Source: Armatimonadota bacterium
GTDB taxonomy: Bacteria; Armatimonadota; SYMT01
NCBI GenBank assembly: GCA_041690135.1
Contig: JAWLHY010000009.1
Location: forward strand, 288,001-352,000
DNA length: 64,000 bases
Reading direction: 5' to 3'
The stretch's first letter is position 1; the number at the start of each line of letters is the position of its first letter. The notes beneath the pieces are model-generated. The model was not told the DNA's origin, ran no database searches, and saw only the letters and a list, made by a program, of their open reading frames with translations. A program made the position numbers and the translations under genes. Below are positions 1-26,863 of the stretch, piece by piece.

Positions 1-900
1 ACGGACGGTGGATTTCCGCTGGATGAGCCTGAGATTGGCCTGAACCGCACGCTCCTGCTGCGCCTGATCCGCCAGGCGCGAGCGAAGGGATGCCGCGTGA
101 TGCTGAATGGTTGCGGCGGTGATCAGGTACTGGGGGGCGAGCCGTACCACCTGCCGCACCTGCTGCAGGATGTCGGACTTGCGCGCCTGTGCGCGGAGTT
201 GCCGCACTTCCGGCGGTGCAGTCGCCGTCCTCTCTGGTGGATTCTGCTGGCGGCCTATGGATTGCCGCTCTTCGGCGGGGAGATCTCCTCCCGCTTGCGG
301 AGTTTGCTCCGGGGGCGAGAAATGGATGCCGCGGGGTTACCGCTCCGTCGCCCCAGTGCGGCGCCGCTTGCCCTGCCGGAGCCGTTGCAAGCGCCGGAGT
401 TCTCCACGCGAGCGGCTGCGGAGAGTTACCGGCAGTTGACGCACGGACTCTTCGTGGCCAGTCTCCAGGAGTTCGAAATCATCGGGGGGGAGACAGGCGT
501 GGAGTGGCGCTTTCCGTTCCTGGATCGCCGCCTGGTCGAATTCATGTTGGGCGTACCTGCCGCTGCGCGATTCGCCGCCGGGTGGCCCAAGCGCATGGTG
601 CGAGAAGGCTTGCGCGGCGTACTGCCGGAGAAGGTGCGTTTCCGGCAGGGCTACGCTCACTTTAGCGGCTTGATCGAACGCGGACTGCGGGAGCGTGAGG
701 TGCCGCGGCGTCAGGAATTGTTGCGGGACCCTCTGCTGGTGTCGTGTGGCCTGGTCGAGCGGGAGCGCCTCGCGCGGGCCTGGAGTTACTGGGAGGATCG
801 GCCGCAAGTGAACTGCTTGCAGCCGTTATTCTCCTCTCTTTTAGTGGAAGCGTGGCTGCGCCATTTTTCGCCCGGGGCTCTCGCCGCGCTGCAAAGTTGA
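1..900 (+). CDS. Asparagine synthase-family protein, probable lasso peptide cyclase (C-terminal part; gene starts before the window)
   Basis: Frame +1 is open from base 1 (TDGGFPLDEPE...RVMLNGCGGDQ). It has the G-x-GGD, E-x-R-x-PFLDRRLVEF and K-x-x-x-R-x-x-x-R-G-x-LP-x-x-V-R motifs of the Asn_synthase domain, and a lasso-type precursor follows directly. Confidence 0.85.
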   Translation, partial: TDGGFPLDEPEIGLNRTLLLRLIRQARAKGCRVMLNGCGGDQVLGGEPYHLPHLLQDVGLARLCAELPHFRRCSRRPLWWILLAAYGLPLFGGEISSRLRSLLRGREMDAAGLPLRRPSAAPLALPEPLQAPEFSTRAAAESYRQLTHGLFVASLQEFEIIGGETGVEWRFPFLDRRLVEFMLGVPAAARFAAGWPKRMVREGLRGVLPEKVRFRQGYAHFSGLIERGLREREVPRRQELLRDPLLVSCGLVERERLARAWSYWEDRPQVNCLQPLFSSLLVEAWLRHFSPGALAALQS

Positions 901-946
901 AGGAACCCGGAGGAGCAACCCACCGGGACCAAGGGATGAAAGTACG

Positions 947-1147
947 ATGGAAATGGAACAAAAGGGAACGCCTGTCAAAACCCTGGCTCAGCCGGCGTAC
1001 GCGGGATCGGACACTGCGGCGCAGATGCCCCGGAAGAAGGAATACCGTCCACCGCTCCTGGAGCGCCTGGGTCCCCTGGAAGAATTGACCCAGGGTGGAA
1101 ATGGCGCCTTTTCCGACGCCCCCCTCGCCGGCACCCGCGCTTTCTAG
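947..1147 (+). CDS. Lasso peptide precursor (49-aa leader + 17-aa core GGNGAFSDAPLAGTRAF)
   Basis: Leader has YRPPLL (YxxPxL) and GPLEELTQ with Thr at -2. Core starts with Gly1 and has Asp8 as acceptor. Lies 46 nt downstream of the cyclase-like gene. Confidence 0.88.
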   Translation: MEMEQKGTPVKTLAQPAYAGSDTAAQMPRKKEYRPPLLERLGPLEELTQGGNGAFSDAPLAGTRAF

Positions 1148-1338
1148 GGTTCCCCCGCCCCGTCCGACGAGTTCTTTCACTGTTTTGGTCGCGTTTGTAG
1201 GCGACCCGCTCCCCTTCCACTGCGCCCCTGGCAGCCAGGCTCGGAACAGTTCCCCAGGTTTCCGGCCCGCCTGCCGAACGGCCACAATTTTGGACCGGCG
1301 GCCCGATTTCCCCGGCAGCGGTTCGAGGAACGACTGAA

Positions 1339-4300
1339 ATGGGTTACGTGCGGAAGTTAGCCTGGCTGCTATTGCTGGGCGTAGTCTCTATGCTGATCAC
1401 GACCGGAGCGATCAGTTCCGAGTCTCTGGGTTCGGCCGCGAGACGCGCCGCGGCGCTGCGTCCGGTCCGAAGAGGCCGCGGCGGCTTTCTGGATTCCGGG
1501 CCGAAAATGGCCGAGACCCGGCGGAAACTGGCGAACCTGTGGCGCAACCGGGTGATCCGCGAGCGGATCCGCCGCCGCCTGGATCTCCGCACTCCGGCTC
1601 CGACGGCCGGCCGTCCCCGCCAGCGCCGGCCGCTGGTGGACGGTCCCGCTCCCGGGGAGTACGTTTACTTCCCGAGTGGCGCAGTCGACGACGGTCGGTT
1701 CCTCACAATTGCGGGCACCACGGGTTCCGCCACTCTTGCGACGGAAATCAAGGTGAAGCTCGCGGCGCCCAGCACCGCGGGAACGCTCGAGATCGGGATC
1801 TTTGACGGGGATACCAGTGGACTGTGGGACCAGGGCACCGGAGCGCTGGAATATACGCTGTATGAGGATAAGGACGGCAACGCGAGTGGAACTACGCAAG
1901 TAGGGCAGTGGTCCGGCTCCGCGATGTCGGACAACACCTGGTTCAGCACCTCGATCAGCACCGGCCCGGGCGCGCAGGCGCCCAGTGGCAACTACTTCTA
2001 CTACCTGCGGGTGCGCCTGGTCGATACGACCTCCATTACGCTCAGCAGCTTCAAGATCCGGACCAATGCCAGCGTCCGCCTGGAACCCCAGAACTCGTTC
2101 AACGTCATCGCCCCGGTCTCTTCGGAGGCGGCCGCGCAGATCATCTATCCCGATTGGCCCTCGCTCACGCCGACGACCTACGACGGCTCGTGGAATTTCT
2201 ACGCCTATGTTCCGAATTCCACGACCTTCTTCGACGTGTGGGATGGCGACCTTGACTTCGGTACTTACAACGGCAGCGTTAAGGACACGGACGACCAGAA
2301 CACAACGACCATCCCCGCCTGGGCGACCGGCACGCCGGCCAACCTGGACGGCGCCTCTTCCGGGTTGAATGCTTCCTCCGGGAATCCGCCGGACGACGAC
2401 ACCCACGCGGTTTTCCGGCGCTCGCCGGACGTCGTTTACGACGTTACGGACCCAAACGGCATTCGGTATTTCAACGGCAACCCTTCCGGAAATCTGGAGT
2501 GGGAGAACTTCCGCATCGATACGGCGCCGTTCAACGCGAGCAACATGGACTACCACGCCGACGAGCTTCCTCCTGGCGTGTATGAGGTTCATATCGACGG
2601 CCTCGACATCAACAACCTGGATGCCTTCCGCTTCGATTTCGACCTCCTGGGGGTCGACAAAGACGGGAACCCCGTCCGCCCCCTGCTGCCCTACATCGTG
2701 GGCGATACGGTGTGGATCGACCAGGTGGCGGACAATGCCTTCGGTGGATTGGGTTCGGGAGAGGGCCACGCAAACGTTACCGTGGAACTGCTCGACGCCA
2801 ACGGGTTCACCCTGGATACGACCACCACGGATGCGCAGGGGCAGTATAGTTTCCCGGTAGAAGCAGGGACCTTTACCGTCTACGTTTCACCGGCGAACTT
2901 CCTTCCGACCGGACCTCTTGCGGGGTACCGGAATATCGCGGGCGGCTCCAACACGCTCACCTACACGGTAGTCAACGCTAATGTCGACACGTACGACTTC
3001 GGGTACCGGGCGGAGGGTCCCGACCGCCTGGGGGATCGGGTGTGGCTTGACGTAGACGGGGATATGACACAAGACTCCGACGAACCCGGCATAGGGGGGG
3101 TCACGGTCATTCTCCGGGATAACGGCGGCGTGCAACTCACGACGACGGTGACGAACGCTAACGGCACGTATCTGTTCACCGGGCTGGCCGCCGCGACTTA
3201 CCAGGTGCAGGTGGACACTACCACCCTGCCGCCCGGCCTGACCCAGACGCACGACCTGGACGGCACGGGAACAGCGCACCTCGCGACCGGCGCCCTGGTG
3301 GGTGGCACCGAGAAGCTGGACTTTGACTTCGGCTATCGGGGGACCGCCTCGATCGGCGACCGGGTCTGGAACGATGTGAACAACTCCGGCGTCCAGGACA
3401 GCGACGATCTCGGCATTGGCGGAGTGAAGTTGGTGCTTACGGGCGATTTCAACGGAGACGGCACCGCGGACCTGACCGCTACCGATACCACCGACTCCAC
3501 CGGTGCCTACCTCTTCGACCGGTTGCCCAGCCTCGACACCGGGACCTATCCGGGTGCGAAATACACGGTGAAGGTGGATACCAACACGCTGCCATACGGC
3601 CTCACCTTGATTTCCGATCCGGACGACAGCCCATCCGTGGCCACGCCCAACCGGTCGGAAGTGACCAGCCTATCCGTCGGACAGGCGAACCTGGTCCAGG
3701 ACTTCGGCTACCGCGGCGGCGGCTGTCTCGGCGGCACCCTCTGGAAGGATGACGATCAGGACGGGAAGATCGATACCGGCGAGACGGTCTTCAGCAACAT
3801 CACCGTGACGCTCTCGGGCGATCTGAACCTGGACGGCGTGTTCGGTGAGTATGCAACGAGCCAGTTGACGGATGCCGACGGCAAGTACTCGTTCACAAAT
3901 CTTCCCGGCGGACGTTTCAAGATCGTGGTCACGGCGTCACAATTGCCTTCCGGCGCCACCTGGAGCCCGACTTACGATGTAGACGGTACCGGCACTGCGA
4001 GCGAGGCGACCCTGATGCTCCACTCTCGGGTCTGTCGGACGGACATCGACTTCGGTTACCGGGCCACAGCCACCGTGACGGGACTGGCCGGAACCGTGTG
4101 GCATGACACCGGCGTGGACGGGATTCTCGATCCGGGTGAGGATGGCATTCCGAATGTCACCGTCAGCATCAGTGGCCCGACCAGCGCCAGCATGCAGACG
4201 GATGCGGACGGCAAGTACAGCTTCCTGGGAATCCCCGCCGGAACGTACACCGTGACGGTGACCCATGCGGAAGTGCCGACCGCCTACAACACTCCCACCG

Positions 4301-6036
4301 GTGACTACGACGGCCTGGGCACCCAGAACACCGCCTCCGTGGCGGTACCCGCGGGCACGACCGTGCAACCTGTGAACTTCGGCTACGTTGGCGTTTGCAA
4401 CCTTGGGAACCGGGTTTGGGACGACCTGGACTTTGATGGAATCCAGGACACCGCGGAATTCGGTACCGGCACGGAGCCGGGGATCAGCGGCGTGACCGTC
4501 CAACTGTACTCGGCGACTACGCTCACCTTCATCGCCAGCACACCGACGGACTCTAACGGGAACTACCAGTTCCAGAACCTGCTACCGGGCGCCTACTACG
4601 TCAAGTTCATCGCCCCTTCGGTCAACCACGTGTTCAGTCCCAGCCTGGAAGGGTCGAACCGCGCGGTGGATAGCGATCCCGATACCGTGACCGGGGAATC
4701 GGGGGTGGTGACCCTGACGGAGGGCACCACGAACCTGACGGTGGACTGCGGCTTCTACGACATCTCCAAGGGCCAGAGCGTGGGCGACCTGGTGTGGATC
4801 GACGCCAACGCGAACGGGGTGCAGGACGCCGGAGAAGCCGGTGTGGCCGGCGTGACGGTGGAACTCTACCGCCAGAGCACGGGCGCGCTGTTGCAAACCA
4901 CCGTCACCAACAGCGACGGCAACTATCTGTTCACGGGGGTGGGGGTCGGCCGGCACTATGTGAAGTTCTACCTGCCGAACGGCTTCGCGTTCACCCAGGC
5001 ACTCCAGGGTGGCGACACGACGAAGGACAGCAATGCCAACGCCTCGACCGGCATCACCGCAGAGTTCCAGGTAAACGGCGGAAACGACGTTTTCACCATC
5101 GACTGCGGCCTGCTGTCGCCGATGATCGAAGGCTGCGTGTGGTATGACCAGAACCGGGACGGGGTGTTCCAGTACACGGAATCGGGCCTGGGGGGGGTGA
5201 CGGTCCAACTTTACAGTGGCGCAACGCTCCTGAAGACCACCACCACTTCGGGCGGCGCCTTTACTTTCACTGGTGTGGCCGCGGGTGTTTACACCGTGAA
5301 GGTGGTCACTTCTTCCCTTCCCGCGGACAAGACGATCGCGACCGTGGACTCGGACGACATCCAGCCGCCGTTGCTCACCCCCCACGAGGTGATCGTGGAC
5401 GTGGAAGCACTGCCCACGGGTACGGACGGGTCTGTTTTCGTGGGGCCGAAAGCATGCTTCGGCTATTCGGTAGCGCCGCGGCTCAATACGGCCAGCAACT
5501 ACCGGTCGCAGACGCAGGGCGGTTGGGGGGCCGAACCCCGCGGCGGGAACGCCGGCGGCTTCCTCCATGCCAACTGGACCACGGTCTACCCAACGGGCAC
5601 GCTGGTAGTGGGGAAAGAGGCGGGCGCCAGTGGTTCGTTCTGGAATATCTTCCTGAACGGTGCCCAGGCGGTCACCAACTTCCTCCCGCAGGGCGGAACG
5701 GCGAGCGTCCTGACGCAGAACCACACGAACCCGCTCAGCACGGAAGCGGGGGTCCTCGCCGCGCAACTGGTCACCGCCCAGATTAGCCGCGACTTCTCGG
5801 CCGCAGGGGTGACGAAGAGCGGCTTGGGCAGCCTGAAGCTGACAAACCCGCCCAACGCGAGCAACCCTTTCAAGGGTTACTCGCTGGATAAGATCCTCGT
5901 CGTCGGCAACCGGGTGCTGTCCGGCAACCTGAACGCTCTGCCGAATGGCGCTACGATCACCCATCTCAACGAAGCCCTGGACTACTTGAACAACTGCTTC
6001 GTCGATGGGATCGAGGACAAGGGCTACTACCGCTAG
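1339..6036 (+). CDS. Large secreted protein with 8 SdrD B-like (CnaB-type) repeats and uncharacterised N- and C-terminal domains
   Basis: Signal peptide. Eight repeats of G(D/N)xVWxDx(D/N)x(D/N)G...ExGxxGVTVxL...TDxxGxYxF...D(F/C)G. Confidence 0.85.
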   Translation: MGYVRKLAWLLLLGVVSMLITTGAISSESLGSAARRAAALRPVRRGRGGFLDSGPKMAETRRKLANLWRNRVIRERIRRRLDLRTPAPTAGRPRQRRPLVDGPAPGEYVYFPSGAVDDGRFLTIAGTTGSATLATEIKVKLAAPSTAGTLEIGIFDGDTSGLWDQGTGALEYTLYEDKDGNASGTTQVGQWSGSAMSDNTWFSTSISTGPGAQAPSGNYFYYLRVRLVDTTSITLSSFKIRTNASVRLEPQNSFNVIAPVSSEAAAQIIYPDWPSLTPTTYDGSWNFYAYVPNSTTFFDVWDGDLDFGTYNGSVKDTDDQNTTTIPAWATGTPANLDGASSGLNASSGNPPDDDTHAVFRRSPDVVYDVTDPNGIRYFNGNPSGNLEWENFRIDTAPFNASNMDYHADELPPGVYEVHIDGLDINNLDAFRFDFDLLGVDKDGNPVRPLLPYIVGDTVWIDQVADNAFGGLGSGEGHANVTVELLDANGFTLDTTTTDAQGQYSFPVEAGTFTVYVSPANFLPTGPLAGYRNIAGGSNTLTYTVVNANVDTYDFGYRAEGPDRLGDRVWLDVDGDMTQDSDEPGIGGVTVILRDNGGVQLTTTVTNANGTYLFTGLAAATYQVQVDTTTLPPGLTQTHDLDGTGTAHLATGALVGGTEKLDFDFGYRGTASIGDRVWNDVNNSGVQDSDDLGIGGVKLVLTGDFNGDGTADLTATDTTDSTGAYLFDRLPSLDTGTYPGAKYTVKVDTNTLPYGLTLISDPDDSPSVATPNRSEVTSLSVGQANLVQDFGYRGGGCLGGTLWKDDDQDGKIDTGETVFSNITVTLSGDLNLDGVFGEYATSQLTDADGKYSFTNLPGGRFKIVVTASQLPSGATWSPTYDVDGTGTASEATLMLHSRVCRTDIDFGYRATATVTGLAGTVWHDTGVDGILDPGEDGIPNVTVSISGPTSASMQTDADGKYSFLGIPAGTYTVTVTHAEVPTAYNTPTGDYDGLGTQNTASVAVPAGTTVQPVNFGYVGVCNLGNRVWDDLDFDGIQDTAEFGTGTEPGISGVTVQLYSATTLTFIASTPTDSNGNYQFQNLLPGAYYVKFIAPSVNHVFSPSLEGSNRAVDSDPDTVTGESGVVTLTEGTTNLTVDCGFYDISKGQSVGDLVWIDANANGVQDAGEAGVAGVTVELYRQSTGALLQTTVTNSDGNYLFTGVGVGRHYVKFYLPNGFAFTQALQGGDTTKDSNANASTGITAEFQVNGGNDVFTIDCGLLSPMIEGCVWYDQNRDGVFQYTESGLGGVTVQLYSGATLLKTTTTSGGAFTFTGVAAGVYTVKVVTSSLPADKTIATVDSDDIQPPLLTPHEVIVDVEALPTGTDGSVFVGPKACFGYSVAPRLNTASNYRSQTQGGWGAEPRGGNAGGFLHANWTTVYPTGTLVVGKEAGASGSFWNIFLNGAQAVTNFLPQGGTASVLTQNHTNPLSTEAGVLAAQLVTAQISRDFSAAGVTKSGLGSLKLTNPPNASNPFKGYSLDKILVVGNRVLSGNLNALPNGATITHLNEALDYLNNCFVDGIEDKGYYR

Positions 6037-6051
6037 GGAGCAGTGGACGCA

Positions 6052-8091
6052 ATGAGGATTCAGCAGTACCTCACACGAAGACAGGCGGACCGGGAGGGGA
6101 AGGGTAGCTTTCCTCTCCCGCCGCGACGGCTCCATCCGGCTTCCCTGTGCGCCATGGGGATGGGCCTGGGTTTGACCTACCTGGGGGCACAGCCCGCCGT
6201 GTCGGAGACGGCGCCTAACCCCTCCTGGAGCAAACTCTACAACGGCGCCGGCAACTTCTACGACTATGCCCGCGCGACCACCGTGGACACCGCCGGCAAC
6301 GTTTACGTGACGGGCAGTTCGGATGGGGACTACGTTACCGTCAAATACGGTCCCACCGGGTCTCAACTCTGGGCGGCCCGTTACGATGGTCCCCGCCACG
6401 GTCTCGATACCCCTACTGCCATTGTTGTGGACAGCGCCGGAAACGTCTACGTCACCGGCGCTTCCTACGGGGGAAACCCCGCCCTGGCCGGGACGGACTT
6501 CGACTTTGCCACCGTCAAGTACGACCCCGCTGGGGATGAACTCTGGGTCGTCCGTTACGACGGACCGGCCGGACGGGAAGATGCGGCCGCGGCGATGACC
6601 CTCGACTCCGAGGAGAACCTGTGCGTGGCCGGCACCTCTTCCACCCTCGCCACGGGCAAGGACTTTACCCTGATCAAGTACTCCCCGGCCGGTGAGGAAC
6701 TCTGGACCTCGCGGTACGACGGCACCGGTGGCGCCGACACCCTGGCGAGCCTGGCGATCGGGAGCGACGATACCCTGGTGGTCACGGGCGAGTCGTGGGG
6801 TGGAGTTTCCCTGATGGACTTCGCCACCGTAAAGTTCAGTGCGGCGGGTACGCGACTGTGGGCCGCCCGTTTTGACGGCAACCTTGCCGCGGATGCAGCG
6901 GTCGCGGTGGCGGTCGACAGCACCGGAGCGGTCTACGTGACCGGCGCCACCGATGGGGGGCCCGCGGGCGCCGGAGGGAGCGAGCTGGACTACGCCACCC
7001 TAAAGTACACGGACCAGGGCGGACAGGTGTGGCTCAAGCGTTATGACAGTGGAAGCCGTAACCTGGACGTTCCGGCCGCTCTGGCGGTGGACGTTAATGG
7101 AAACGTGTTCGTCACCGGCCGGTCCCGGACCCCTACTGGCGGGTACGGCTTTCTGACCCTCGCCTATAACACGGGCGGGACCCAGTTGTGGTCGGATCGG
7201 TATGACGCCAGCGGCAACCGGGATGATTACCCCACCGGTCTCGTCGCCACCGGGGTCGGTACCCTCTACATCGCGGGCCAGGCGACGGCCGGCTCGGGGC
7301 GGGTGGGCTTCGCCACCCTCAAGTACAGTCTCGCCGGCAGTCGACTCTGGGTGGCGCGGTATGACGGACCCACGAACGGCGATTCCGCGCCGGTCGCCAT
7401 GGCCCTCCAGGGAGACGATGCCCTGGTGGTGGCCGGAACCGCCTGGGGGACCAGCGGCACCCAGGACTACGCCACGCTGAAGTATCTCATCGGCGCCTCG
7501 GCTCCCCCGTCCGCCCCGAGCGGTCTCGTCGGCGCTCCCACTTCCGCCGGCGACGTTCTCCTGACCTGGCAGGACACCAGCGGGGATGAAGCGGGGTTCC
7601 GGATCGAGCGAAAACTCGGCCGTGCCGACTACGTGGAGGTCGGCACGGTAGGCGCCGGGGTTACCAACTTCGTCGACATGAGCGCCGCACTCCGGTCGAA
7701 GTATCGCTACCGGGTAGTGGCCTTCAATGCCCTGGGGAGTTCCGCGCCTTCCAACGAGTTGGCGGTGAATCTTCCCGCTCGCCTGACCACGCGTATCTCC
7801 GTTTCGCCGACGAAGGTGAAGTTCCCCCGAGTACGGATCGGCAGTACCGGAAGCAAGTCGGTCACGGTGCGCAACCTCGGCAGCACCATCCTGACCGGAC
7901 GCATAGTAGCGCCCTCGACTCCGTTCAGTGCGGCGAGTGAGGAGTTCACGTTGTATCCCCGGGCTCGGAAGCAAGTGTCCGTGCAGTTTGCCCCTACCGC
8001 CACGGGTGATTTCACCGGTGAGCTGCAGGTGGAGAGCAACGATCCCAAGAAGCCGGTGGCTCCGGTGAAACTTTCGGGTAAAGGCTTCTAA
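6052..8091 (+). CDS. Secreted SBBP-type beta-propeller protein with fibronectin III and C-terminal ASH/choice-of-anchor D domains
   Basis: Eight W-x-x-RYDG...VDxxGNVYVTG...D(Y/F)ATxKY blades, FN3 (LTWQDTSGDEAGFRIER...YRYRVVAFN), and a C-terminal SPTKVKF...VTVRNLG...SNDP...VKLSGKG domain. Start may be 6043. Confidence 0.82.
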   Translation: MRIQQYLTRRQADREGKGSFPLPPRRLHPASLCAMGMGLGLTYLGAQPAVSETAPNPSWSKLYNGAGNFYDYARATTVDTAGNVYVTGSSDGDYVTVKYGPTGSQLWAARYDGPRHGLDTPTAIVVDSAGNVYVTGASYGGNPALAGTDFDFATVKYDPAGDELWVVRYDGPAGREDAAAAMTLDSEENLCVAGTSSTLATGKDFTLIKYSPAGEELWTSRYDGTGGADTLASLAIGSDDTLVVTGESWGGVSLMDFATVKFSAAGTRLWAARFDGNLAADAAVAVAVDSTGAVYVTGATDGGPAGAGGSELDYATLKYTDQGGQVWLKRYDSGSRNLDVPAALAVDVNGNVFVTGRSRTPTGGYGFLTLAYNTGGTQLWSDRYDASGNRDDYPTGLVATGVGTLYIAGQATAGSGRVGFATLKYSLAGSRLWVARYDGPTNGDSAPVAMALQGDDALVVAGTAWGTSGTQDYATLKYLIGASAPPSAPSGLVGAPTSAGDVLLTWQDTSGDEAGFRIERKLGRADYVEVGTVGAGVTNFVDMSAALRSKYRYRVVAFNALGSSAPSNELAVNLPARLTTRISVSPTKVKFPRVRIGSTGSKSVTVRNLGSTILTGRIVAPSTPFSAASEEFTLYPRARKQVSVQFAPTATGDFTGELQVESNDPKKPVAPVKLSGKGF

Positions 8092-8276
8092 CTTGGAGGT
8101 CCGCCCGAGTGAGGAAACGGTCCCCACGCTCTACCGGTTGCCGTTCGGCCTTTGTCAGCTTCGCCTGGGGTGAGCCGGATTGCACGGTCCGCAGCGGGAA
8201 CACCTCCGATCGGGAACTCGCCTGGCGTTTGCTCCCACCGCACCTTTGCCTCCAGGCTGCGACAGCCGCGCAGGTT

Positions 8277-8615
8277 GTGCCCGTCAGCGAGCAGGATGAG
8301 GCTCGGGGATCTCTCTGGCCGGTGAAAGACCTGCTCTTCGGAGAGTTCGAGGGGGAACTCCTGCTGGCCCGCGACGAAATCGGTGAGGGGTATCGCCTCT
8401 CCGGTATTGGGGCGGAGTTCTGGCGGTCCATCCTTGCGGGTGAGCCCGCCGCCGAAACGGCGGAACGCTTGAGCCGCGTCTACGACGTAGACGCCGGTAC
8501 CGTTTGCACGAATTTGGAAGGCTTCACCCGCACGCTGCTCCAGCAAGGTTGGCTGCAGCCTGCCGGTGCGGCGGATGGGGATGGGCAGGAAGTCCCGAGC
8601 ATTCCGGAGAGGTAA
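8277..8615 (+). CDS. PqqD-family RiPP recognition element (lasso B1/E-type)
   Basis: EFEGELLL...YRLSGIGAEFWRSI...ERLSRVYDVDAGTVCTNLEGFTRTLLQQGWL matches the PqqD winged-helix pattern. Start uncertain (frame open from 8109). Confidence 0.8.
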   Translation: MPVSEQDEARGSLWPVKDLLFGEFEGELLLARDEIGEGYRLSGIGAEFWRSILAGEPAAETAERLSRVYDVDAGTVCTNLEGFTRTLLQQGWLQPAGAADGDGQEVPSIPER

Positions 8616-8748
8616 TACCGAAGAGGTGATAGAGGACAGCGGCGGCATTCCCCTTAACCAGGTAGCAACGGATCCATGTCGGACCCGTCGATGGCAGCGT
8701 CCCGCGTCTACACTACGATCCGCGGGCTTCCACGGTAAGGAATGTGGG

Positions 8749-9606
8749 ATGAAACGTCGGGATTTTCTCATCGGTTCTGCCGGCCTTCTGCTGGCGGCGG
8801 ATCGCGCGTGCGGCGAGCCACGCGTGGTGCGCGATGTCGTTTATGGCGAGCCTGGCGGACACCGCCTGCTCATGGACATCTACCGTCCGGAGACGCCCGG
8901 GCCGCACCCCGCCGTGGTGCTGGTCCATGGCGGTGGCTGGCTGGGAGGCAGTAAGGCGGGGCACCAGGGCACGGGGATGCTGCTGGCGCGGCACGGGTAC
9001 GTTGCTTGCGCCATCAATTACCGCCTGGCACCCCAATATCCGTATCCCGCCGCCTTTGATGATTGCCAGAGGGCCGTGCGGTGGGTCCGCGCGCACGCCG
9101 GGGAGTACGGGATCGATCCGAAGCGAGTCGGGGCGATGGGGGATTCAGCGGGAGGCCACCTGGTGGCCCTGATCGGGGTGCGGCACACCCGCGACAATAG
9201 CGATCGGGAGCTCTCGCGGTTCCGGAGCCGTCCTGATGTGGTGGTCGCCTATTACGGCGCCTTCGAGCTCGTGCGGATGTGGGATATCGAGATGGCCCAT
9301 CGCCCGCTGACCGCCTGGCTCGGGGGTCCGCCCGATCAACACGCCAAGGTATACCGGGAGGCCTCACCCGTGGCGATGGTCACTCGCAAGTCGCCGCCGT
9401 TCCTGATCCTGCACGGCAACCGGGACATGGTCAATCCGCTGGAGCAGTCCGAGTTGCTACATGCGGCTCTCCGAAAAAAGGGTGTCACGAGTGAGATGGT
9501 GGTCCTGGACGGTGCGGGGCACGGCTGGGCCCTGGACTCCCCGCATGGGAAACAGGCCGAGAAGGCCGTGCTGACCTTCCTGGACAGGCACCTACGACGC
9601 AAATAG
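8749..9606 (+). CDS. Alpha/beta hydrolase (BD-FAE/HSL-like esterase) with Tat-like signal
   Basis: MKRRDFL signal, HGGGW oxyanion motif, GDSAGG nucleophile elbow, HGNRD and GAGHGW. Confidence 0.9.
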   Translation: MKRRDFLIGSAGLLLAADRACGEPRVVRDVVYGEPGGHRLLMDIYRPETPGPHPAVVLVHGGGWLGGSKAGHQGTGMLLARHGYVACAINYRLAPQYPYPAAFDDCQRAVRWVRAHAGEYGIDPKRVGAMGDSAGGHLVALIGVRHTRDNSDRELSRFRSRPDVVVAYYGAFELVRMWDIEMAHRPLTAWLGGPPDQHAKVYREASPVAMVTRKSPPFLILHGNRDMVNPLEQSELLHAALRKKGVTSEMVVLDGAGHGWALDSPHGKQAEKAVLTFLDRHLRRK

Positions 9607-9752
9607 GCGCGCCCGATGCAGAGCTTGGACGACACAATACCCGAGGATAAACCTCACCCTGAACGGCGGCCCCTGTGGACCCTATCGCATGGCGAGCGAT
9701 ACCGTTGACGACGGTTCACACCCAAAGTGTACGCGCCGTCTAGCGGGAGGTA

Positions 9753-9806
9753 CGGCTGGGCGAGTGAACTCGCGGCTACACAAAGCGAAGCCTGCCTCCG
9801 CAGGCT
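9753..9806 (+). repeat. REP-like double-hairpin element, family A copy 1
   Basis: CGGCTGGGCGAGTGAACTCGCGGCTACACAAAGCGAAGCCTGCCTCCGCAGGCT recurs at 26982, 40933 and, inverted, at 9896. Confidence 0.8.
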
Positions 9807-14220: not shown

Positions 14221-14387
14221 AGGGGCAAAGTTCAGGCATGTTGTAACTATCTTCGCCCGTGCGCCGGTTGATCCTCCCCAGATCGTCTCTGGATGCAGGG
14301 GGGAGCCGATCTTGTAGAGGAACCGGGCTCCTGACGGCCGAATGGGTGGAGTGGGCGAAGAGTGGAGCCTCGTCCGGAACGGAAGAG

Positions 14388-16568
14388 ATGGCAGAACGAA
14401 GACTTGGGACCTGGAAGCTGCTGATCCCCGCGGTTGCCCTGGGTGCGGTTGGCTGGTCGGAGCTGGCAGAGGCCGGACGTCCAGGTCTTACCGCCGGCAA
14501 TGATTACTGGAGCGTGGAGAGTGATGCGGAGCGAAGGGCTCTCCCGAAGTACCAGGTGATTCCGGCGGCCCGTCCCGCGGAGTTGACCCCGGCCGGGGAA
14601 GGAAGGGACCTGCGGAGTGGACGGAACTGGCCGCGGTCTCACGGTGGCGACGCGGGAACCCGGTACTCCACCTTGAGCCAGATTGACCGCCGCAACGTGA
14701 GCGAGCTTCAGGTCGCCTGGACCTATCGCTCCAAAGACGGCACCGGCAATATCCAGTGCAATCCGATCGTGGTGGACGGCGTGATGTATGCGCCCACGGT
14801 GGGGCACAACGTGGTGGCCGTGAATGCGGAGACCGGACAGGAGATCTGGCGGTTCCGACCCGAAGGGCAGCCAGCCTTCCGCGGCCTCACTTACTGGCCG
14901 GGAGATGGTCGAAACGCTGCGCGTCTCCTGTTCAACGCCGGGAATGACCTGTGGTCGCTCGATGCGAAAACGGGGCAGCCGGTGACCTCCTTCGGCCAGA
15001 AGGGGAGGGTGCGCTCCGGCCATTTCCGGGTCGCGCCGGCCGTCTACCGCGATGTGATCGTGATCGCCGGGTACGACCGGGACGTCTTCGGTTTCGAACT
15101 GCTGACCGGGAAGCCGCTCTGGACATTCCACACCATCCCCCAGCCGGGCGAATTCGGGTACGACACGTGGGACGGGCCGGAGCAGGGCGCCAACTGCTGG
15201 GGCGGCATCGCGCTGGACGGCGAGCGAGGCATTGCCTACATCGCGACCGGTTCCCCCAAGCCGAACTACGATGGCGCGGGCCACTGGGGCGACAATCTCT
15301 TCTCCAACTGTCTGATTGCGCTCGATGCGCAGACCGGCCGCCGCCTCTGGCACTTCCAGGAGATCCGCCACGACATCTGGGACATGGATCTCCCCGCGCC
15401 CCCGGTGCTGGTCTCCGTGAAGCGCGCCGGGAAGAAGGTGGATGCCGTCGCTACGGTCACGAAACTGGGCAACACACTTCTGCTGGACCGGGTCACCGGC
15501 AAGCCGCTGTTTCCGTTTCGTCTGCGCCGCGCTCCCACGTCCAGACTGCCCGGGGAGCGGACCTCGCCCTATCAACCGGACCTGGAACTTCCGCAGCCGT
15601 TCTCCCGGCAGGTGTTCGGTCCGAACGACGTGACCAACATTTCTCCCGAGGCGCGGGAATTCATCTCGAAGCGGGTCCGCTCCGCGAACTACGGCTGGTT
15701 CCAGGCCTTCGAGCCCGGAAAGCCGACCGTTTACTACGGCGTGCATGGGGGCGGGGAGTGGACCGGGGCCTCGTTCGATCCTACCAGCGGTTACCTCTAC
15801 ATCAATGCCAACGAGTTGCCGTGGATCATCACGGTGATCCCGCATACGGCGCGGGTGAAACGCGACCCGCAACAGCCGCCGACGGCGGGGGAGCAGGTCT
15901 ATCGTCGCGAGTGCGTTTCCTGCCACGGATCGGAACGGGAGGGCGTGGGGGTCGCGCCGCCGTTGCTGGCGCTCGACTTCCGGATGAAGGATGCGGACCT
16001 GGTGCGCCTGCTGAAGACGGGCCGTGGCGGCACCCACCCGAGGTTCTCCCTGGCGGCGGCCGATGAGAGAACCCTGCTGGAGTACGTCTTCGACCGGGAT
16101 CGGCCGGCAGTCGCTGTGGACCGCGGTAAGCGGCCGGAGTACACCTTCCTGGGTTTCCAAAAGCTGCTGGATGAAAACGGCTATCCCGGCAGCAAGCCGC
16201 CCTGGGGAACGCTCAACGCGCTCGACCTGAACACCGGGAAGCTGGTCTGGAAGGTGCCGTTGGGTGAGTATCCCGAACTGACGCAGCGAGGGATCCCGAA
16301 AACCGGCACGGAGAATTTCGGTGGCGCCCTTTCGACGGCCGGTGGCCTGGTCTTCTGCGCGGGCACCCGGGACGAGAAAATCCGGGCCTTCGACGCGGCG
16401 ACCGGCAAGGAGCTGTGGGAGCACCGCTTGCCGTTCGGAGGCTACGCGCCTCCCGCGACGTATGAAGTGAAGGGTCGGCAATACGTGGTCATCCCCGCCA
16501 CCGGCGGGGGCAAGCTAGGCGGCCCGATGGGGGACGCCTACGTAGCCTTCGCCCTACCCCAACGTTAA
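14388..16568 (+). CDS. PQQ-dependent (glucose dehydrogenase-like) quinoprotein with inserted cytochrome c domain
   Basis: RYSTLSQIDRRNV, GANCWGG, WHFQEIRHDIWDMD, GGGEWTG, CVSCH heme motif, KPPWGTL, GTENFGG, and TYEVKGRQYVVI. Confidence 0.9.
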   Translation: MAERRLGTWKLLIPAVALGAVGWSELAEAGRPGLTAGNDYWSVESDAERRALPKYQVIPAARPAELTPAGEGRDLRSGRNWPRSHGGDAGTRYSTLSQIDRRNVSELQVAWTYRSKDGTGNIQCNPIVVDGVMYAPTVGHNVVAVNAETGQEIWRFRPEGQPAFRGLTYWPGDGRNAARLLFNAGNDLWSLDAKTGQPVTSFGQKGRVRSGHFRVAPAVYRDVIVIAGYDRDVFGFELLTGKPLWTFHTIPQPGEFGYDTWDGPEQGANCWGGIALDGERGIAYIATGSPKPNYDGAGHWGDNLFSNCLIALDAQTGRRLWHFQEIRHDIWDMDLPAPPVLVSVKRAGKKVDAVATVTKLGNTLLLDRVTGKPLFPFRLRRAPTSRLPGERTSPYQPDLELPQPFSRQVFGPNDVTNISPEAREFISKRVRSANYGWFQAFEPGKPTVYYGVHGGGEWTGASFDPTSGYLYINANELPWIITVIPHTARVKRDPQQPPTAGEQVYRRECVSCHGSEREGVGVAPPLLALDFRMKDADLVRLLKTGRGGTHPRFSLAAADERTLLEYVFDRDRPAVAVDRGKRPEYTFLGFQKLLDENGYPGSKPPWGTLNALDLNTGKLVWKVPLGEYPELTQRGIPKTGTENFGGALSTAGGLVFCAGTRDEKIRAFDAATGKELWEHRLPFGGYAPPATYEVKGRQYVVIPATGGGKLGGPMGDAYVAFALPQR

Positions 16569-21971: not shown

Positions 21972-23528
21972 TCAAGCGAGGATCCCATTTACGACCTTTC
22001 CCTCGTTGGTGGGGCCGATGAGGCGGTTGTTGAGGCCCTGGTAGGTGTAGTGGAAGCGGTAGGGGTCGAGGCCGAGCCGGTTCAGGATCGTCGCCTGGAG
22101 GTCCCGGACGGTGACCTTGTCCTTCACGATGTAGTAGCCGAGCTCATCCGTTTCCCCAAAGGCCAGGCCCGACTTGATCCCGCCCCCGGCCATCCACATG
22201 GTGAAGGCGAAGGGATGATGGTCGCGGCCGATGAAGCCCTTCGCCCGCTCCGTGCGGACGTTGTTCTGCATCATGGGGGTGCGACCGAACTCGCCGCCCC
22301 ACACCACCAGGGTGCTGTCGAGCAGGCCCCGCTGCTTCAGGTCGGCCAGGAGGCCCGCCACGGCGCGGTCGATCTGCCGGCACTTGATAGGGAGCGTCTC
22401 GTCGATCGACTCACCCGGTGAGCTGCCGTGGTGGTCCCAGCCCCAGTCGTAGAGCTGGACGAAGCGGACGCCGCGCTCCACGAGCCGCCGGGCCAGGAGG
22501 CAGTTGTTGGCGAAGGTGGCGTCTTCCCCCTTGTAGTCGGCGCGGGGGTCGTCCTTCCCTTCGATGTTGGAGACGTGGCCCGGCTTAGCACCGTACAGGT
22601 CGAGGACGTGCCGCGGCTCCTTCGAGATGTCCATCACGTCCGGGACGGAGACCTGCATCCGGAACGCCAGCTCGTACTGTTCGATGCGCGTGAGCGTCTC
22701 GGCATCGCCGACTTTCTTGAGCTGGTACTCGTTCAGGTCCTTCAGCGCGTCCAGGGTCTTGCGTCGGAGGTTGCGGTCGATCCCCGCCGGGTTGGAGAGG
22801 AACAGCACCGGGTCGCCGCCGTCCGTGCGGCACTGCACGCCCTGGTACACGGTCGGCAGGAAGCCGCTGCCCCACACGCTCTTGCCGGCGTCCGGCGACT
22901 TCCCACCGGAGGTGAGCACCACGAAGCCGGGGAGATCCTGGTTGACGCTACCGAGACCATAGGTGGCCCAGGCCCCCATGCTGGGATAGCCGAAACGGGG
23001 CTGCCCGGTGTGGAGATAGAGTTGCGCCGGCGCGTGGTTGAACTGGTCGGTCGTCATGGAGCGGATGACGCAGAGGTCATCCGCCTTTGCCGCTAGATGG
23101 GGCAGCAGCTCGCTGACCCACTGGCCGCTCTGGCCGTGCTGTTTGAACTTGAACACCGGCCCGAGCATCTTGGGGACGCCCTTGATGAACGCGAACCGCT
23201 TCCCCTTGAGGAACTCCTCCGGGCAGTCCTGGCCATCATACTTGATCAACTCGGGCTTGTGCTCGAACAACTCCAACTGGGAAGGCGATCCCGCCATGTG
23301 AAGGTAGATGACCGCCTTGGCCTGGGGCGGAAGCATCGGCGCCCGGGGGCTGAGTGGGCCCGGCTTCGGCGCCCCGGCCGGTGATCCGGCGGCCGGCGCG
23401 GCGTTGCCGTCGCTCTGGAGCAGGGTGCTGAGGGCCATGTTGCCCACCCCAAGCCCGATGCCGCCGAAGAACTGGCGGCGGGTCACTGCCTGGGCCTGAA
23501 GTAATCGGAGTTCGTCTTGGGGATTCAT
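21972..23528 (-). CDS. DUF1501 protein (Tat-exported, sulfatase-like fold)
   Basis: TRRQFF, AKAVIYLHMAGSPSQLE, PSMGAW, CLLARRLVERGVRFVQL, WDHH, and WGGEFGRTP. Confidence 0.92.
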   Translation of the reverse strand: MNPQDELRLLQAQAVTRRQFFGGIGLGVGNMALSTLLQSDGNAAPAAGSPAGAPKPGPLSPRAPMLPPQAKAVIYLHMAGSPSQLELFEHKPELIKYDGQDCPEEFLKGKRFAFIKGVPKMLGPVFKFKQHGQSGQWVSELLPHLAAKADDLCVIRSMTTDQFNHAPAQLYLHTGQPRFGYPSMGAWATYGLGSVNQDLPGFVVLTSGGKSPDAGKSVWGSGFLPTVYQGVQCRTDGGDPVLFLSNPAGIDRNLRRKTLDALKDLNEYQLKKVGDAETLTRIEQYELAFRMQVSVPDVMDISKEPRHVLDLYGAKPGHVSNIEGKDDPRADYKGEDATFANNCLLARRLVERGVRFVQLYDWGWDHHGSSPGESIDETLPIKCRQIDRAVAGLLADLKQRGLLDSTLVVWGGEFGRTPMMQNNVRTERAKGFIGRDHHPFAFTMWMAGGGIKSGLAFGETDELGYYIVKDKVTVRDLQATILNRLGLDPYRFHYTYQGLNNRLIGPTNEGKVVNGILA

Positions 23529-26500
23529 GGCTTCGTCACTGCCTCGTCCAGGTTCAGGAGCACGTTGGCGACCACGAGGTAGGCCGCCTGCGTGATGGGA
23601 TCGTCGGCCTTCAGCGTGGGCGCGTTTGCGGTGGTCAGGAGGGCCTTTGCGGCCTCCGGATTGGCGCGGAAGTCCGCCAGCGTGGCTTCGAAGAGTCGCT
23701 CCAGGCGGTCGAGCTCCGGCGCGGCGGGCTTCCGCGCGAGGGTGCGGTAAAAGCCGGCAGAGAGCCGCTCGCGTGCCTTCGTGGCCTTCTGTTCCAGCAT
23801 CACCCGCCCCAGCGCTCCGGCCGCTTCCACGAAAGCGGGGTCGTTCAGGGTCACCAGCGCCTGGAGAGGCGTGTTTGTCCGGATGCGCCGTACCACACAG
23901 AACTCTCCGGAGCCCGCGTCGAAGGTCGTTAGCGACGGATAGGGGCTCGTGCGCCGCCAGAAGGTGTAAAGGGACCGCCGATAACGATCTTCACCCTCGC
24001 TGGTTTTCCACTTCAATCCGCTGTAAACGGTTTTCCAGATGCCGTACGGTTGCGGCGGCATCACCGAGGGTCCGTGCGTTTTCGCGGAGAGCAGCCCCGA
24101 TACCGCCAGCGCCTGGTCGCGGATCACCTCCGCGGGCAGGCGGAAGCGCGGTCCCCGGCTGAGGAGCGTATTTGCGGGATCGATTCTCGCCTTTTCGGGC
24201 GTGACCTGCCCCGCTTGCCGGTAGGTCGCGGACATGACGATCAGCTTGAGCAGCTTCTTGGTGCTCCAACCTAGGCCTTCGGCGGGTGTGGGGACTGGGG
24301 ACTGGGGGCTGGGGGCAGCGTATCGCGTAGTGCGCAATGCCTTGCCGGCGTAATGCGTAGTGCGTATTGCATTGCCGGCGTAATTCGTATTGCGTATTGC
24401 GTAATCCGAACCCCGGGAACCAGAAGCTGCAGTGGTGCGCGAGGGTCGGGTCTCCCTTGCCCTCACCTGCCGCTTGCGGGTACCCGGTCCGCTCCCCTGC
24501 GTACTGGTGACCGCTGCGGGTGTGGAGTACATGGAAGCCAGAAAATCCAGCAGGTCCGGGTGCGAGGGCAGGGTGCCCTGGGTGCCGAAGTCTTCTTCCG
24601 TCTCTACCAGGCCGGTGCCGAAGAGACGGGCCCAGATGCGGTTGACGGCGACCCGGGCGGTCAGCGGGTTCTCCGGCGATACCAGCCACTGCGCCGCGCC
24701 GAGGCGGTTCAGGGGGGCGCCGGCGGGCAAGGCGCCGAAGGCGGCAGGGAAGCCCGGAGTGACTTCTTCGCCCGGGTCCAGGAAGTTGCCGCGCTGGTGG
24801 ATCTGGGTGAGGCGCTGCTTATCCTTCGGCAGGTCCCGCATCACGGGAGTCTTGGGGACTGCAGCCTCCAGGGCCGCCCGCTCCTTTTCCGTGGCGGTGA
24901 TCTGTCGATAGATGCCGGCCGTGGGCTCGTGGCTCTGTCGGAAGGCCTCGTCCAACCGCTTTTGCACCTCCTCGGAGCGTTCGGCACGGGGGATCCGGGC
25001 CAGGTCCGAATGCGGCTTCAACTCAGCCTTGAGCAGTTCCGGCTCCGCGGCGCTGATGGACAGGCGGAAGCAGCCATGCTGGAGGTTCGGATAGTTCTGC
25101 TGAATCTTGACCACCAGGCGCCCACCGTCGGGCACGGACAGCGGTGTTTTCAGATCGAACACGGCCACGTGCGCCTGCGCATTCTGCGGCGACCACGCCC
25201 ACCCGGTGGCGGGATTGCCGTCGATCGCGCCGCCTACGGGCCAGCCCTGCTGCTCGAAATCGGCGCGGGCATTGACCAGGGCGACGGGCCGGCGCTCTTT
25301 GCCATCCTCGGAGACGAGTTCCGCCGTGATCTCGGAGGTCACCACATTCTGGTCGCTGCCGTGTCGTCCCGGCCCACCGCTGGGGAGGGAGGGGTCCTTC
25401 AGGGCTTCCAACCGGAGGGAACGGACCGTTACGCTCGGAAGCGGAAACGTGAGCGTGTAGGTAGACTTCTCCGCTTTCGGACCGCCCACCACAAGGGCGC
25501 CGTCCGGCCGCGCGTGGAAGGTGGCGCCGGAGCTGCTCTCCGCCCGTTCCTGCCGCAGCGGCGTCCAGAGGGATTTCGCGGCGAGCTCCTTTTCCCATGT
25601 CAGTTGCCGCGCTTCCAAGTCGGGTGCGTCCTGGGCGAACGCCGCGCGCAGCGTCCGGATCTTTTCATCCAGCTCGGCGCGCCGCTTCATCTGCTCAGGC
25701 GTCGGCATGGGTACGGTAGGCGCTTCGTCGAAGCGGTTGGCATCTTCCGACTGGTTGAACAGAGCGTAGAACCGGTAGTACTCGCGATGGGTGATTGGGT
25801 CGTACTTGTGCGTGTGGCACTTGGCGCAGCCCATGGTGAGGCCCATCCACACCTGAACCGTGGTATCGACCCGGTCCTTCACGGCCGCAATCCGGAATTC
25901 TTCGCGGTCCACACCTCCCTCGGTGTTGGTCATCGTGTTCCGGTGGAACGCGGTGGCGAGGAGCTGCGAAGGAGTGGGATTGGGGAGCAGGTCGCCGGCG
26001 AGTTGCTCCACGGTGAACCGGTCGTAGGGCATGTCCGCGTTGAAGGCGTCGATGACCCAGTCCCGGTAGCGCCAGATGGTCCGCTGACCATCCTTCTCGT
26101 ACCCCTGTGTGTCCGCGTAGCGGGCCAGGTCCAGCCACATCCGCGCCCAGTGCTCCCCATAGCGGGGCGAGGCCAGCAGGCGGTCCACCACCTTCTCGTA
26201 GGCATTCGGGCTGCGGTCATTGATGAAGGCTTCCACCTCCGCCGGGGTGGGAGGGAGTCCCGTGAGATCGAGCGAGACGCGGCGGATGAGCGCGGAACGG
26301 TCTGCTTCTGTTTCCGGCTTCAGGCGCGCCTTCTCCAGCCGCGCGAGGACGAACGGATCGATCGGGTTGCGGCTCCACTCGCGGTTCTTCACCTTTGGCG
26401 GCGTGGGGCGGCGGAGTGGGGCGAACGACCAGTGGACGGCGTACGGTGCGCCCTGTTTCACCCAGGCGGTCAGCAGTTTCTTTTGCTGAGGCGTCAGTTG

Positions 26501-26863
26501 GTGGCCGCTGGACGCGGGCGGCATCAGCAGGTTCGGATCCGAAGTGTTGATCCGCGCGACCAGCGTGCTCTTCTCGGGCTTGCCGGGATCGATGGCCCGG
26601 CTGCCGTTCCGGAGTGCGACGGCCCCCTCCCGGGTGTCGAGCCGGAGCCCGGCCTGGCGGGAGTCGGGGTCCTGACCGTGACACGCGAAGCAGTTAGAAG
26701 CCAGGATCGGCCGGATGTCCCGGTTGTAGTCCACGGTCTCTGCCGAAAGTGATGGCTTCGGCGCTCCGGCCTGGGCGGCATTCAGCGCAAGAAGACCGAG
26801 GCCCGGAAGGGCTCCCAGGAGAATGGCTCGGACGGCGCCATGGCTGCGTCGGTGTCTGGTCAT
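23525..26863 (-). CDS. Planctomycete cytochrome c / DUF1549 (PSCyt2) / DUF1553 (PSD1) protein, copy 1
   Basis: YNRDIRPILASNCFACHG, WLDLARYADT, CAKCHTHKYDP, NPLTARVAVNR, and TNTPLQAL. Overlaps the DUF1501 start by 4 nt. Confidence 0.92.
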   Translation of the reverse strand: MTRHRRSHGAVRAILLGALPGLGLLALNAAQAGAPKPSLSAETVDYNRDIRPILASNCFACHGQDPDSRQAGLRLDTREGAVALRNGSRAIDPGKPEKSTLVARINTSDPNLLMPPASSGHQLTPQQKKLLTAWVKQGAPYAVHWSFAPLRRPTPPKVKNREWSRNPIDPFVLARLEKARLKPETEADRSALIRRVSLDLTGLPPTPAEVEAFINDRSPNAYEKVVDRLLASPRYGEHWARMWLDLARYADTQGYEKDGQRTIWRYRDWVIDAFNADMPYDRFTVEQLAGDLLPNPTPSQLLATAFHRNTMTNTEGGVDREEFRIAAVKDRVDTTVQVWMGLTMGCAKCHTHKYDPITHREYYRFYALFNQSEDANRFDEAPTVPMPTPEQMKRRAELDEKIRTLRAAFAQDAPDLEARQLTWEKELAAKSLWTPLRQERAESSSGATFHARPDGALVVGGPKAEKSTYTLTFPLPSVTVRSLRLEALKDPSLPSGGPGRHGSDQNVVTSEITAELVSEDGKERRPVALVNARADFEQQGWPVGGAIDGNPATGWAWSPQNAQAHVAVFDLKTPLSVPDGGRLVVKIQQNYPNLQHGCFRLSISAAEPELLKAELKPHSDLARIPRAERSEEVQKRLDEAFRQSHEPTAGIYRQITATEKERAALEAAVPKTPVMRDLPKDKQRLTQIHQRGNFLDPGEEVTPGFPAAFGALPAGAPLNRLGAAQWLVSPENPLTARVAVNRIWARLFGTGLVETEEDFGTQGTLPSHPDLLDFLASMYSTPAAVTSTQGSGPGTRKRQVRARETRPSRTTAASGSRGSDYAIRNTNYAGNAIRTTHYAGKALRTTRYAAPSPQSPVPTPAEGLGWSTKKLLKLIVMSATYRQAGQVTPEKARIDPANTLLSRGPRFRLPAEVIRDQALAVSGLLSAKTHGPSVMPPQPYGIWKTVYSGLKWKTSEGEDRYRRSLYTFWRRTSPYPSLTTFDAGSGEFCVVRRIRTNTPLQALVTLNDPAFVEAAGALGRVMLEQKATKARERLSAGFYRTLARKPAAPELDRLERLFEATLADFRANPEAAKALLTTANAPTLKADDPITQAAYLVVANVLLNLDEAVTKP
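24272..24526 (-). repeat. In-frame heptamer-repeat insert in the DUF1553 domain (85-codon loop)
   Basis: NTACGCA heptamers arranged in 30-bp units, followed by CCCAG(T/C)C heptamers. Confidence 0.75.

Follow-up and report, generated by a model that had tools for sequence, protein, structure and literature searches.

A predicted class II lasso precursor–cyclase pair without a B2 peptidase gene in cis in an Armatimonadota genome

Microcin J25 has a Gly-rich, 8-membered ring that connects Gly1 to the Glu at position 8, and its system, located on a proteobacterial plasmid, includes a fused B protein and a dedicated exporter. The common rules for mining genomes for lasso peptides require a cyclase and a B2 peptidase together. 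The class II systems with a split B protein and an NF033521 leader (e.g. Tbi of Thermobaculum terrenum) share with the locus described here the leader pattern, Thr at position -2, Gly1 and Asp8 of the core, an asparagine synthase-like cyclase that lacks Cys1 and a separate gene for a PqqD-type RRE, a candidate one in the present case. Lasso rings are 7–9-membered and join the N-terminal residue to an Asp or Glu at positions 7–9, and B and C act in all lasso clusters known by 2021, according to a review from that year (PMC8498205). The first lasso route that dispenses with both B1 and B2, that of triculamin, employs a follower peptide and an N-truncated cyclase, as described in PMC12070363.

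The locus analyzed here lies at the start of the window, i.e. the whole stretch of 64 000 nucleotides of contig 9 that was analyzed; the scanned genome comprises 9.1 Mb in 25 contigs and is 97% complete. The original prediction placed the DNA in an Armatimonadota-like host, in agreement with the best named relatives of the GyrB protein (76–78% identity), all of which are Armatimonadota. A full-text literature search, in which the terms co-occurred only outside titles and abstracts, returned no characterized lasso peptide from this phylum. It is very likely that the locus contains a real pair of a lasso precursor and a cyclase. Its sole unusual trait is a split cluster without B2 in cis; otherwise, this is an ordinary family member, given that a curated NCBI family covers the leader and that cyclase homologs (E ≤ 1e-40) are present in 4 of the 40 related Armatimonadota genomes. 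If made, the product would represent a new lasso scaffold from Armatimonadota, 17 residues long and with a Gly1–Asp8 ring, and cluster rules that demand a cyclase and B2 in one neighborhood may skip such precursors.

The precursor gene and its cyclase

The features of the pair, in window coordinates, are the following.

1–900, plus strand: C-terminal 299 codons of the predicted lasso cyclase (C), assigned from Pfam, NF033535, the Ser at the Cys1 position and the tree
947–1147, plus strand: predicted lasso precursor gene (A), 66 codons plus stop, with an NF033521 match and coding-like GC
953 (Met3) and 1025 (Met27), plus strand: alternative starts of the precursor
1043–1093, plus strand: predicted recognition and cleavage motif of the leader, YRPPLLERLGPLEELTQ, with the NF033521 match and Tyr-17, Pro-14, Leu-12, Gly-8 and Thr-2
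1094–1144, plus strand: predicted core GGNGAFSDAPLAGTRAF, with a predicted Gly1–Asp8 ring and residues 9–17 as the tail

The 66-amino acid ORF at 947–1147 of the plus strand (MEMEQKGTPVKTLAQPAYAGSDTAAQMPRKKEYRPPLLERLGPLEELTQGGNGAFSDAPLAGTRAF) is co-oriented with the upstream cyclase gene, and its ATG follows the stop codon of the latter (898–900) after a gap of 46 nt. The leader pattern YxxPxLxxxGxxxxxTx, with Thr at position -2, can be read directly in the sequence at the canonical spacing, and residues 33–51 match the NCBIfam model NF033521 (lasso_leader_L3) with 22.5 bits (cut-off 19, E = 8.2e-5). This model represents a curated family whose name, ‘lasso RiPP family leader peptide-containing protein’, is assigned automatically by the NCBI annotation pipeline. 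The original prediction reported YRPPLL, the GPLEELTQ/G junction, Met27 and a 17-residue core within a 66-amino acid ORF located directly after an asparagine synthase homolog; all these elements are found as described, and the proposed identity of the ORF as a lasso precursor is borne out by the above-cut-off NF033521 match, the spacing of the motifs and the lasso cyclase upstream.

The alternative that this 66-codon frame is untranslated, with the motif being a coincidence in GC-rich DNA, appears highly improbable. It would fit the lack of whole-peptide homologs in two very large protein searches, the one exception being a protein with leader repeats, P0123: the query alone was matched in a word search of 5.8 billion proteins, and a HMMER search of 1.84 billion proteins with the precursor returned only the query and P0123. 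Against this reading, the match to the curated family is unique in the genome, where a six-frame search of the 9.1 Mb with NF033521 yielded 3 matches at E ≤ 1, only the window ORF scoring over the cut-off. A loose custom regular expression for leader and core matches 32 places in the genome, one of them just downstream of each of the two lasso-clade cyclases (contigs 9 and 4), compared with an expectation of ~5e-4 per given 300-nt same-strand window. Furthermore, the ORF occupies the position that is typical of leader-like ORFs near the surveyed cyclases, and its codon-position GC (0.69/0.52/0.70) is coding-like and close to that of the cyclase (0.72/0.50/0.76), unlike that of the overlapping minus-strand ORF at 662–1285 (0.68/0.64/0.60). 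On sequence grounds, 947–1147 is a genuine class II lasso precursor gene rather than a chance ORF. No precursor ortholog that could show purifying selection was found in the searches of protein collections and of the 40 related genomes.

In the precursor of the window, the paralogous precursor on contig 4 and the precursor of the metagenomic locus L108, an ATG is located 28–32 codons before the Tyr, whereas many other members of the leader family start 6–12 residues before it; the agreement of the three related precursors mildly favors the long leader over a start at Met27. A scan of positions 1–9800 of the window detected 0 promoter-like sites and 6 terminator-like sites, with 6.5 of the latter expected from shuffled sequences.

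The core combines a small N-terminal residue, Gly1, with an acidic residue in the 7–9 range, Asp8, and contains none of the disulfide-forming cysteines that class II peptides lack. As the core has no acidic residue other than Asp8, Gly1–Asp8 is the only ring that the sequence permits, in line with the macrolactam originally proposed; both the ring and the plug residues are predictions. The 9-residue tail, APLAGTRAF, includes Leu11, Arg15 and Phe17, and is predicted to be threaded. The calculated mass of the lasso is 1589.7586 Da vs 1607.7692 Da for the linear core.

The complete cyclase gene (G000:C9:286996-288900) encodes 634 amino acids from an ATG, with a TTG 10 codons upstream, and its intact PP-loop SGGMDSS lies upstream of the window start. 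Pfam recognizes Asn_synthase (140.3 bits), GATase_7 and GATase_6. The best NCBIfam match is the lasso cyclase model NF033535, with 361.6 bits, below its strict cut-off of 525, and the AsnB model TIGR01536 scores 219.9 bits, also under its cut-off (267.1). The N-terminus, MSSIGAIL, has Ser in the place of the Cys1 of AsnB. In an alignment of the query with 27 homologs of 36–51% identity, none of the 25 alignable N-termini has Cys at this position (Ser in 23 and Gly in 2; the remaining 3 rows are truncated there), and each of the 48 columns that do not vary among the 28 homologs is conserved in the query.

A FastTree phylogeny of 82 rows, namely the 70 best full-length cyclase homologs from two collection scans and 12 proteins from the same genome, with partial sequences shorter than 520 amino acids left out, places the 8 AsnB-like paralogs of the genome in a clade of their own (support 100). 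The contig 9 cyclase falls within a lasso-context clade of 74 rows, where it forms a subclade with the cyclase of L108 (support 99), joined next by the contig 4 cyclase (support 99). Only these groupings are relied upon, because the tree is rooted at the midpoint and the supports are SH-like. The case against the pair, as originally framed, was that the upstream gene might group with true AsnB enzymes with an intact Cys1; the Ser at this position, NF033535 as the best family and the separation from the AsnB-like paralogs all point the other way, and the gene is a predicted lasso cyclase, not AsnB. None of the cyclase homologs in the 40 related genomes exceeds 40% identity, so that no ortholog is recognized there.

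Related loci and close paralogs

Two scans with the cyclase alignment delineated at least 158 loci, in which iteratively built HMMs detected at least 108 B2 and at least 114 PqqD segments. The usual gene order among the loci listed is RRE, B2, cyclase, precursor. Within 6 kb of the surveyed cyclases, at least 98 ORFs match a regular expression for the leader kkpYxxPxLxxyGxvxxLTq followed by a core with Asp or Glu at positions 7–9, and none of them has a core identical to GGNGAFSDAPLAGTRAF. Given the shared leader type and the lack of an identical core, the precursor adds another hypervariable core to a common leader type: as judged by these comparisons, the predicted core is previously unseen and the leader is of a well-known family.

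The precursors nearest to that of the window are the contig 4 paralog, the one from L108 and one from a genome of the same phylum (G016). Six positions are invariant across these 4 precursors (alignment A2), namely Y33, P36, G42, T48, G53 (core Gly4) and D57 (core Asp8).

The contig 4 cluster (~139.5–144.7 kb, locus L011) is a complete paralogous cluster with the following genes, in locus coordinates.

2–877, minus strand: NTP_transf_5
918–1526, plus strand: B2
1495–3375, plus strand: cyclase
3427–3609, plus strand: precursor
3625–4809, plus strand: RRE

Its cyclase, 38% identical to that of contig 9, belongs to the same subclade (support 99). The leader, YEAPRITHLGQVEAVTQ, resembles that of the window, both cores contain G-A-F-x-D with the Asp at position 8, and the RRE is encoded downstream of A. 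The differences from the contig 9 locus are that B2 is located directly upstream of C, with an NTP_transf_5 gene nearby, that ~290 amino acids without a Pfam family are fused to the N-terminus of the RRE, and that the core would start with Asp (DGGGAFVDGLGTSQI) if the Tyr-17/Thr-2 spacing is canonical.

The cyclase of L108 shows 50% identity to that of contig 9, the closest among the matches listed, and L108 is the only locus among these matches from the group of ~50%-identical cyclases P0004–P0008. As in the window, the cyclase gene precedes that of the precursor, an ATG ~28 codons before the Tyr makes for a long leader, Asp occupies core position 8 and there is no B2 beside the cyclase; the RRE-C-A arrangement leaves no room for one between RRE and C. 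L108 differs in having the RRE directly upstream of the cyclase and in its core (GTQGALDDLGTTRAT), and its 4.4-kb contig shows little context.

Two more clusters of a cyclase homolog, PqqD and B2 are present in the genome, on contig 3 (~73.6–77.1 kb) and contig 1 (~1,190.3–1,194.3 kb) (L017, L023, L005, L015 and L025); within the lasso-context clade, their cyclases are basal and long-branched, and the leader regular expression detected no precursor in either. In P0123, a protein of 199 amino acids, four tandem units each combine a lasso-like leader (YEPPRLVSLGSVRELTQ or YEPPAVERLGTLADLTAG) with a core-like stretch behind it; this may represent either a multi-cassette precursor of lasso peptides or genes fused in the gene call.

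The candidate RRE and the B2 peptidase

Downstream of the precursor, the window contains the following genes.

1339–6036, plus strand: predicted 1565-amino acid surface protein with SdrD-like B repeats
6043–8091, plus strand: 682-amino acid protein with an SBBP beta-propeller and a choice-of-anchor D domain
8277–8615, plus strand: candidate RRE (B1, PqqD-like), 112 codons from the GTG at 8277, also open from the TTG at 8229 and the GTG at 8109

The PqqD-like ORF is encoded on the same strand as the precursor, 7.1 kb downstream, beyond the two unrelated genes for predicted surface proteins; no homologs of these two proteins were detected near the esterase orthologs of related genomes. The ORF scores 31.6 bits against Pfam PqqD (cut-off 23.4) and 37.9 bits against a custom HMM built from lasso-linked RREs. 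Its only two NCBIfam matches are both lasso RRE models, far under the cut-off (19.3 vs 80), and in the PDB it is best matched by the lasso RRE TbiB1 (E = 0.0026). The codon-position GC from 8277 (0.73/0.48/0.74) supports the frame. The nearest BLAST neighbors are lasso-linked RREs, at ~30% identity (34.6% for the contig 4 RRE); the RRE of L108 is outside the top 25, although the cyclase of L108 is the closest.

Several observations tie this ORF to the lasso pair. In both loci of the genome with such a precursor (contigs 9 and 4), the RRE lies downstream of A, no other RiPP enzymes were detected among the ORFs scanned from ~15 kb upstream to ~18–26 kb downstream, and in 3 genomes of the same family, neither PqqD nor B2 nor a cyclase adjoins the orthologs (66–72% identity) of the esterase that is encoded after the ORF here. 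The ORF at 8277–8615 is thus a candidate RRE for the leader of the window, with leader binding being a prediction. A role of the PqqD-like ORF in PQQ synthesis is unlikely, with no PqqC match and no PqqE over the cut-off in the genome, the PqqC negative carrying little weight because the PqqC control matched in none of the 14 control genomes. The adjacent alpha/beta hydrolase (8749–9606) was considered as a lasso isopeptidase and rejected: it has 285 amino acids and no propeller, and is conserved without PqqD in 3 related genomes.

Farther downstream, the window encodes a PQQ-dependent dehydrogenase with a cytochrome c domain (14259–16568, plus strand; Pfam PQQ, 501 bits), the cofactor of which may be scavenged given the same lack of PqqC and above-cut-off PqqE matches. 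The minus strand at 21972–26863 carries a DUF1501 gene and, after it, a PSCyt1/DUF1549/DUF1553 gene, a pair typical of Planctomycetota and Verrucomicrobiota that is found here in Armatimonadota, with several DUF1559/N_methyl prepilin-like genes nearby.

No B2 gene was detected on the 366-kb contig 9. Pfam PF13471 has 4 matches in the genome, none of them on this contig; the HMM built from 108 lasso-linked B2 proteins has 3, on contigs 4, 3 and 1, and again none on contig 9; and in a filter-free B2 scan of C9:262-318 kb, the best score was 5.9 bits (E = 0.4). The fourth PF13471 match, on contig 15, was rejected as a B2, being a generic Transglut_core protein of 502 amino acids. The three bona fide B2 genes each adjoin their own cyclase homolog, and the one on contig 4 scores 64.1 bits on NF033537 (cut-off 33). 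Immediately upstream of the contig 9 cyclase, there is a 336-bp gap followed by a divergent TPR-CHAT gene. The original prediction suggested looking upstream of the cyclase for a B2 gene and would have fallen had the genome contained none: the genome encodes three, so that the prediction survives this check, but none of the three lies upstream of the cyclase or anywhere else on contig 9. The other genes of the usual cluster set, for a transporter, a kinase and a nucleotidyltransferase, are not found near the contig 9 locus either.

The contig 9 locus is atypical in this respect because, B2 is present within 5 kb in 24 of the 29 comparable cyclase–precursor loci listed and absent from this range in the other 5; these 29 have 5 kb or more of flanking sequence on either side of the cyclase and a precursor recognized by the regular expression within 1 kb on the cyclase strand, and 35 further well-flanked loci without a recognized precursor were left out of the count. 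With no B2 on contig 9, a B2 peptidase would have to come in trans. A lasso B2 that serves a cluster other than its own is not known to have been documented, and literature searches for B2 supplied from elsewhere in the genome and for phylum surveys yielded nothing relevant among the records listed.

The layout of the locus would also be compatible with a silent remnant, i.e. a cluster that lost B2 and was broken by rearrangement, with the genes still intact and no mature peptide formed. We consider this unlikely, but not negligible: besides the missing B2, two unrelated genes separate the RRE from the pair, neither export nor immunity genes were found nearby, and the lack of orthologs of more than 40% identity in the 40 related genomes fits a recent, possibly transient acquisition. 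However, both ORFs are intact, the cyclase retains its full set of invariant columns and the leader keeps every motif residue. In addition, L108, with the closest cyclase among the matches listed (50% identity), likewise has the RRE-C-A order without B2 between RRE and C, which suggests that a B2-less layout persists rather than representing a one-off decay.

Maturation of the predicted peptide and comparison with known systems

The best overall explanation, and a fairly probable one, is that a canonical leader–cyclase pair operates with the RRE of the window and with B2 supplied in trans. By analogy with the established lasso pathway, the PqqD-like RRE (~8277–8615) would bind the leader via Tyr-17, Pro-14 and Leu-12, and a B2 cysteine peptidase of the transglutaminase fold would cut after Gln-1, guided by Thr-2. 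The most likely source of B2 would be the B2-C-A-RRE cluster on contig 4, the cyclase of which is the nearest in the genome; that the contig 4 B2 performs the leader cutting is plausible but somewhat doubtful. The ATP-dependent cyclase would then adenylate the side chain of Asp8 and join it to the amine of Gly1, with the tail APLAGTRAF threaded and held by bulky residues, Arg15 and Phe17 being the likeliest candidates, to give a 17-residue lasso of 1589.76 Da. The arguments for and against actual maturation of the peptide in the host organism appear evenly balanced.

Maturation independent of B2, with the leader cut by a housekeeping peptidase or by an unrecognized dedicated non-B2 peptidase, so that the subclade works without B2, is quite improbable. 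The contig 9 locus and L108 form a subclade in which neither cyclase has a B2 next to it, although the B2 of L108 may sit just outside the sequence given the short contig. The 5 well-flanked loci without B2 within 5 kb point in the same direction, as does a Pfam search of 48 ORFs from 8 B2-less loci that found no Transglut_core3. The B2-less loci (L069, L103, L167, L073 and L083, and also L053, L068, L146 and L181) come from several phyla, and several of them carry PqqD, NTP_transf_5, HPr-kinase-like and ABC genes along with ORFs of 320–590 amino acids without a Pfam family.

The search for a replacement peptidase argues against such independence. No family was found to be specific to the B2-less loci except a glycosyltransferase (9 B2-less loci vs 0 with B2), which was rejected as a B2 substitute because it marks non-lasso polysaccharide contexts. 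Nor do the neighbors of the contig 9 pair, the cyclase aside, recur in other lasso loci, save for one CHAT match; the upstream CHAT/TPR protein was itself rejected as a substitute peptidase, with a homolog in 1 of 162 loci, a locus that has its own B2. Moreover, three B2 genes are available in trans in the genome, and the only proven route without B1 and B2, that of triculamin, relies on a follower and an N-truncated cyclase (PMC12070363), unlike the locus analyzed here.

Also rather improbable is the idea that the contig 9 locus and L108 represent a lineage with a canonical leader and a full-length cyclase that has given up a dedicated B2, cleavage being performed by a different protease that has so far escaped recognition or by one that several clusters share. 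If such a lineage exists, it would constitute, after triculamin, the second non-canonical route, and a class of lasso peptides would escape genome miners that depend on B2.

Under the reading we prefer, with B2 supplied in trans, the locus compares with the known systems as follows. Like microcin J25, the core GGNGAFSDAPLAGTRAF is predicted to form a Gly-rich, 8-membered ring from Gly1, but with Asp rather than the Glu of microcin J25, the tail of which is longer. From the split-B class II systems, the contig 9 locus differs in having no B2 on the contig and in the location of the RRE, 7 kb off behind two genes. The kinase, nucleotidyltransferase and ABC transporter that are common in the cyclase family are absent at this locus, and the core is unmatched. 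With the triculamin type (PMC12070363), the locus has in common that neither B1 nor B2 is clustered with the cyclase and the precursor; in contrast to triculamin, with its follower and truncated cyclase, it has a predicted C-terminal core behind a canonical leader and a cyclase that keeps the GATase_6/GATase_7 N-domains.
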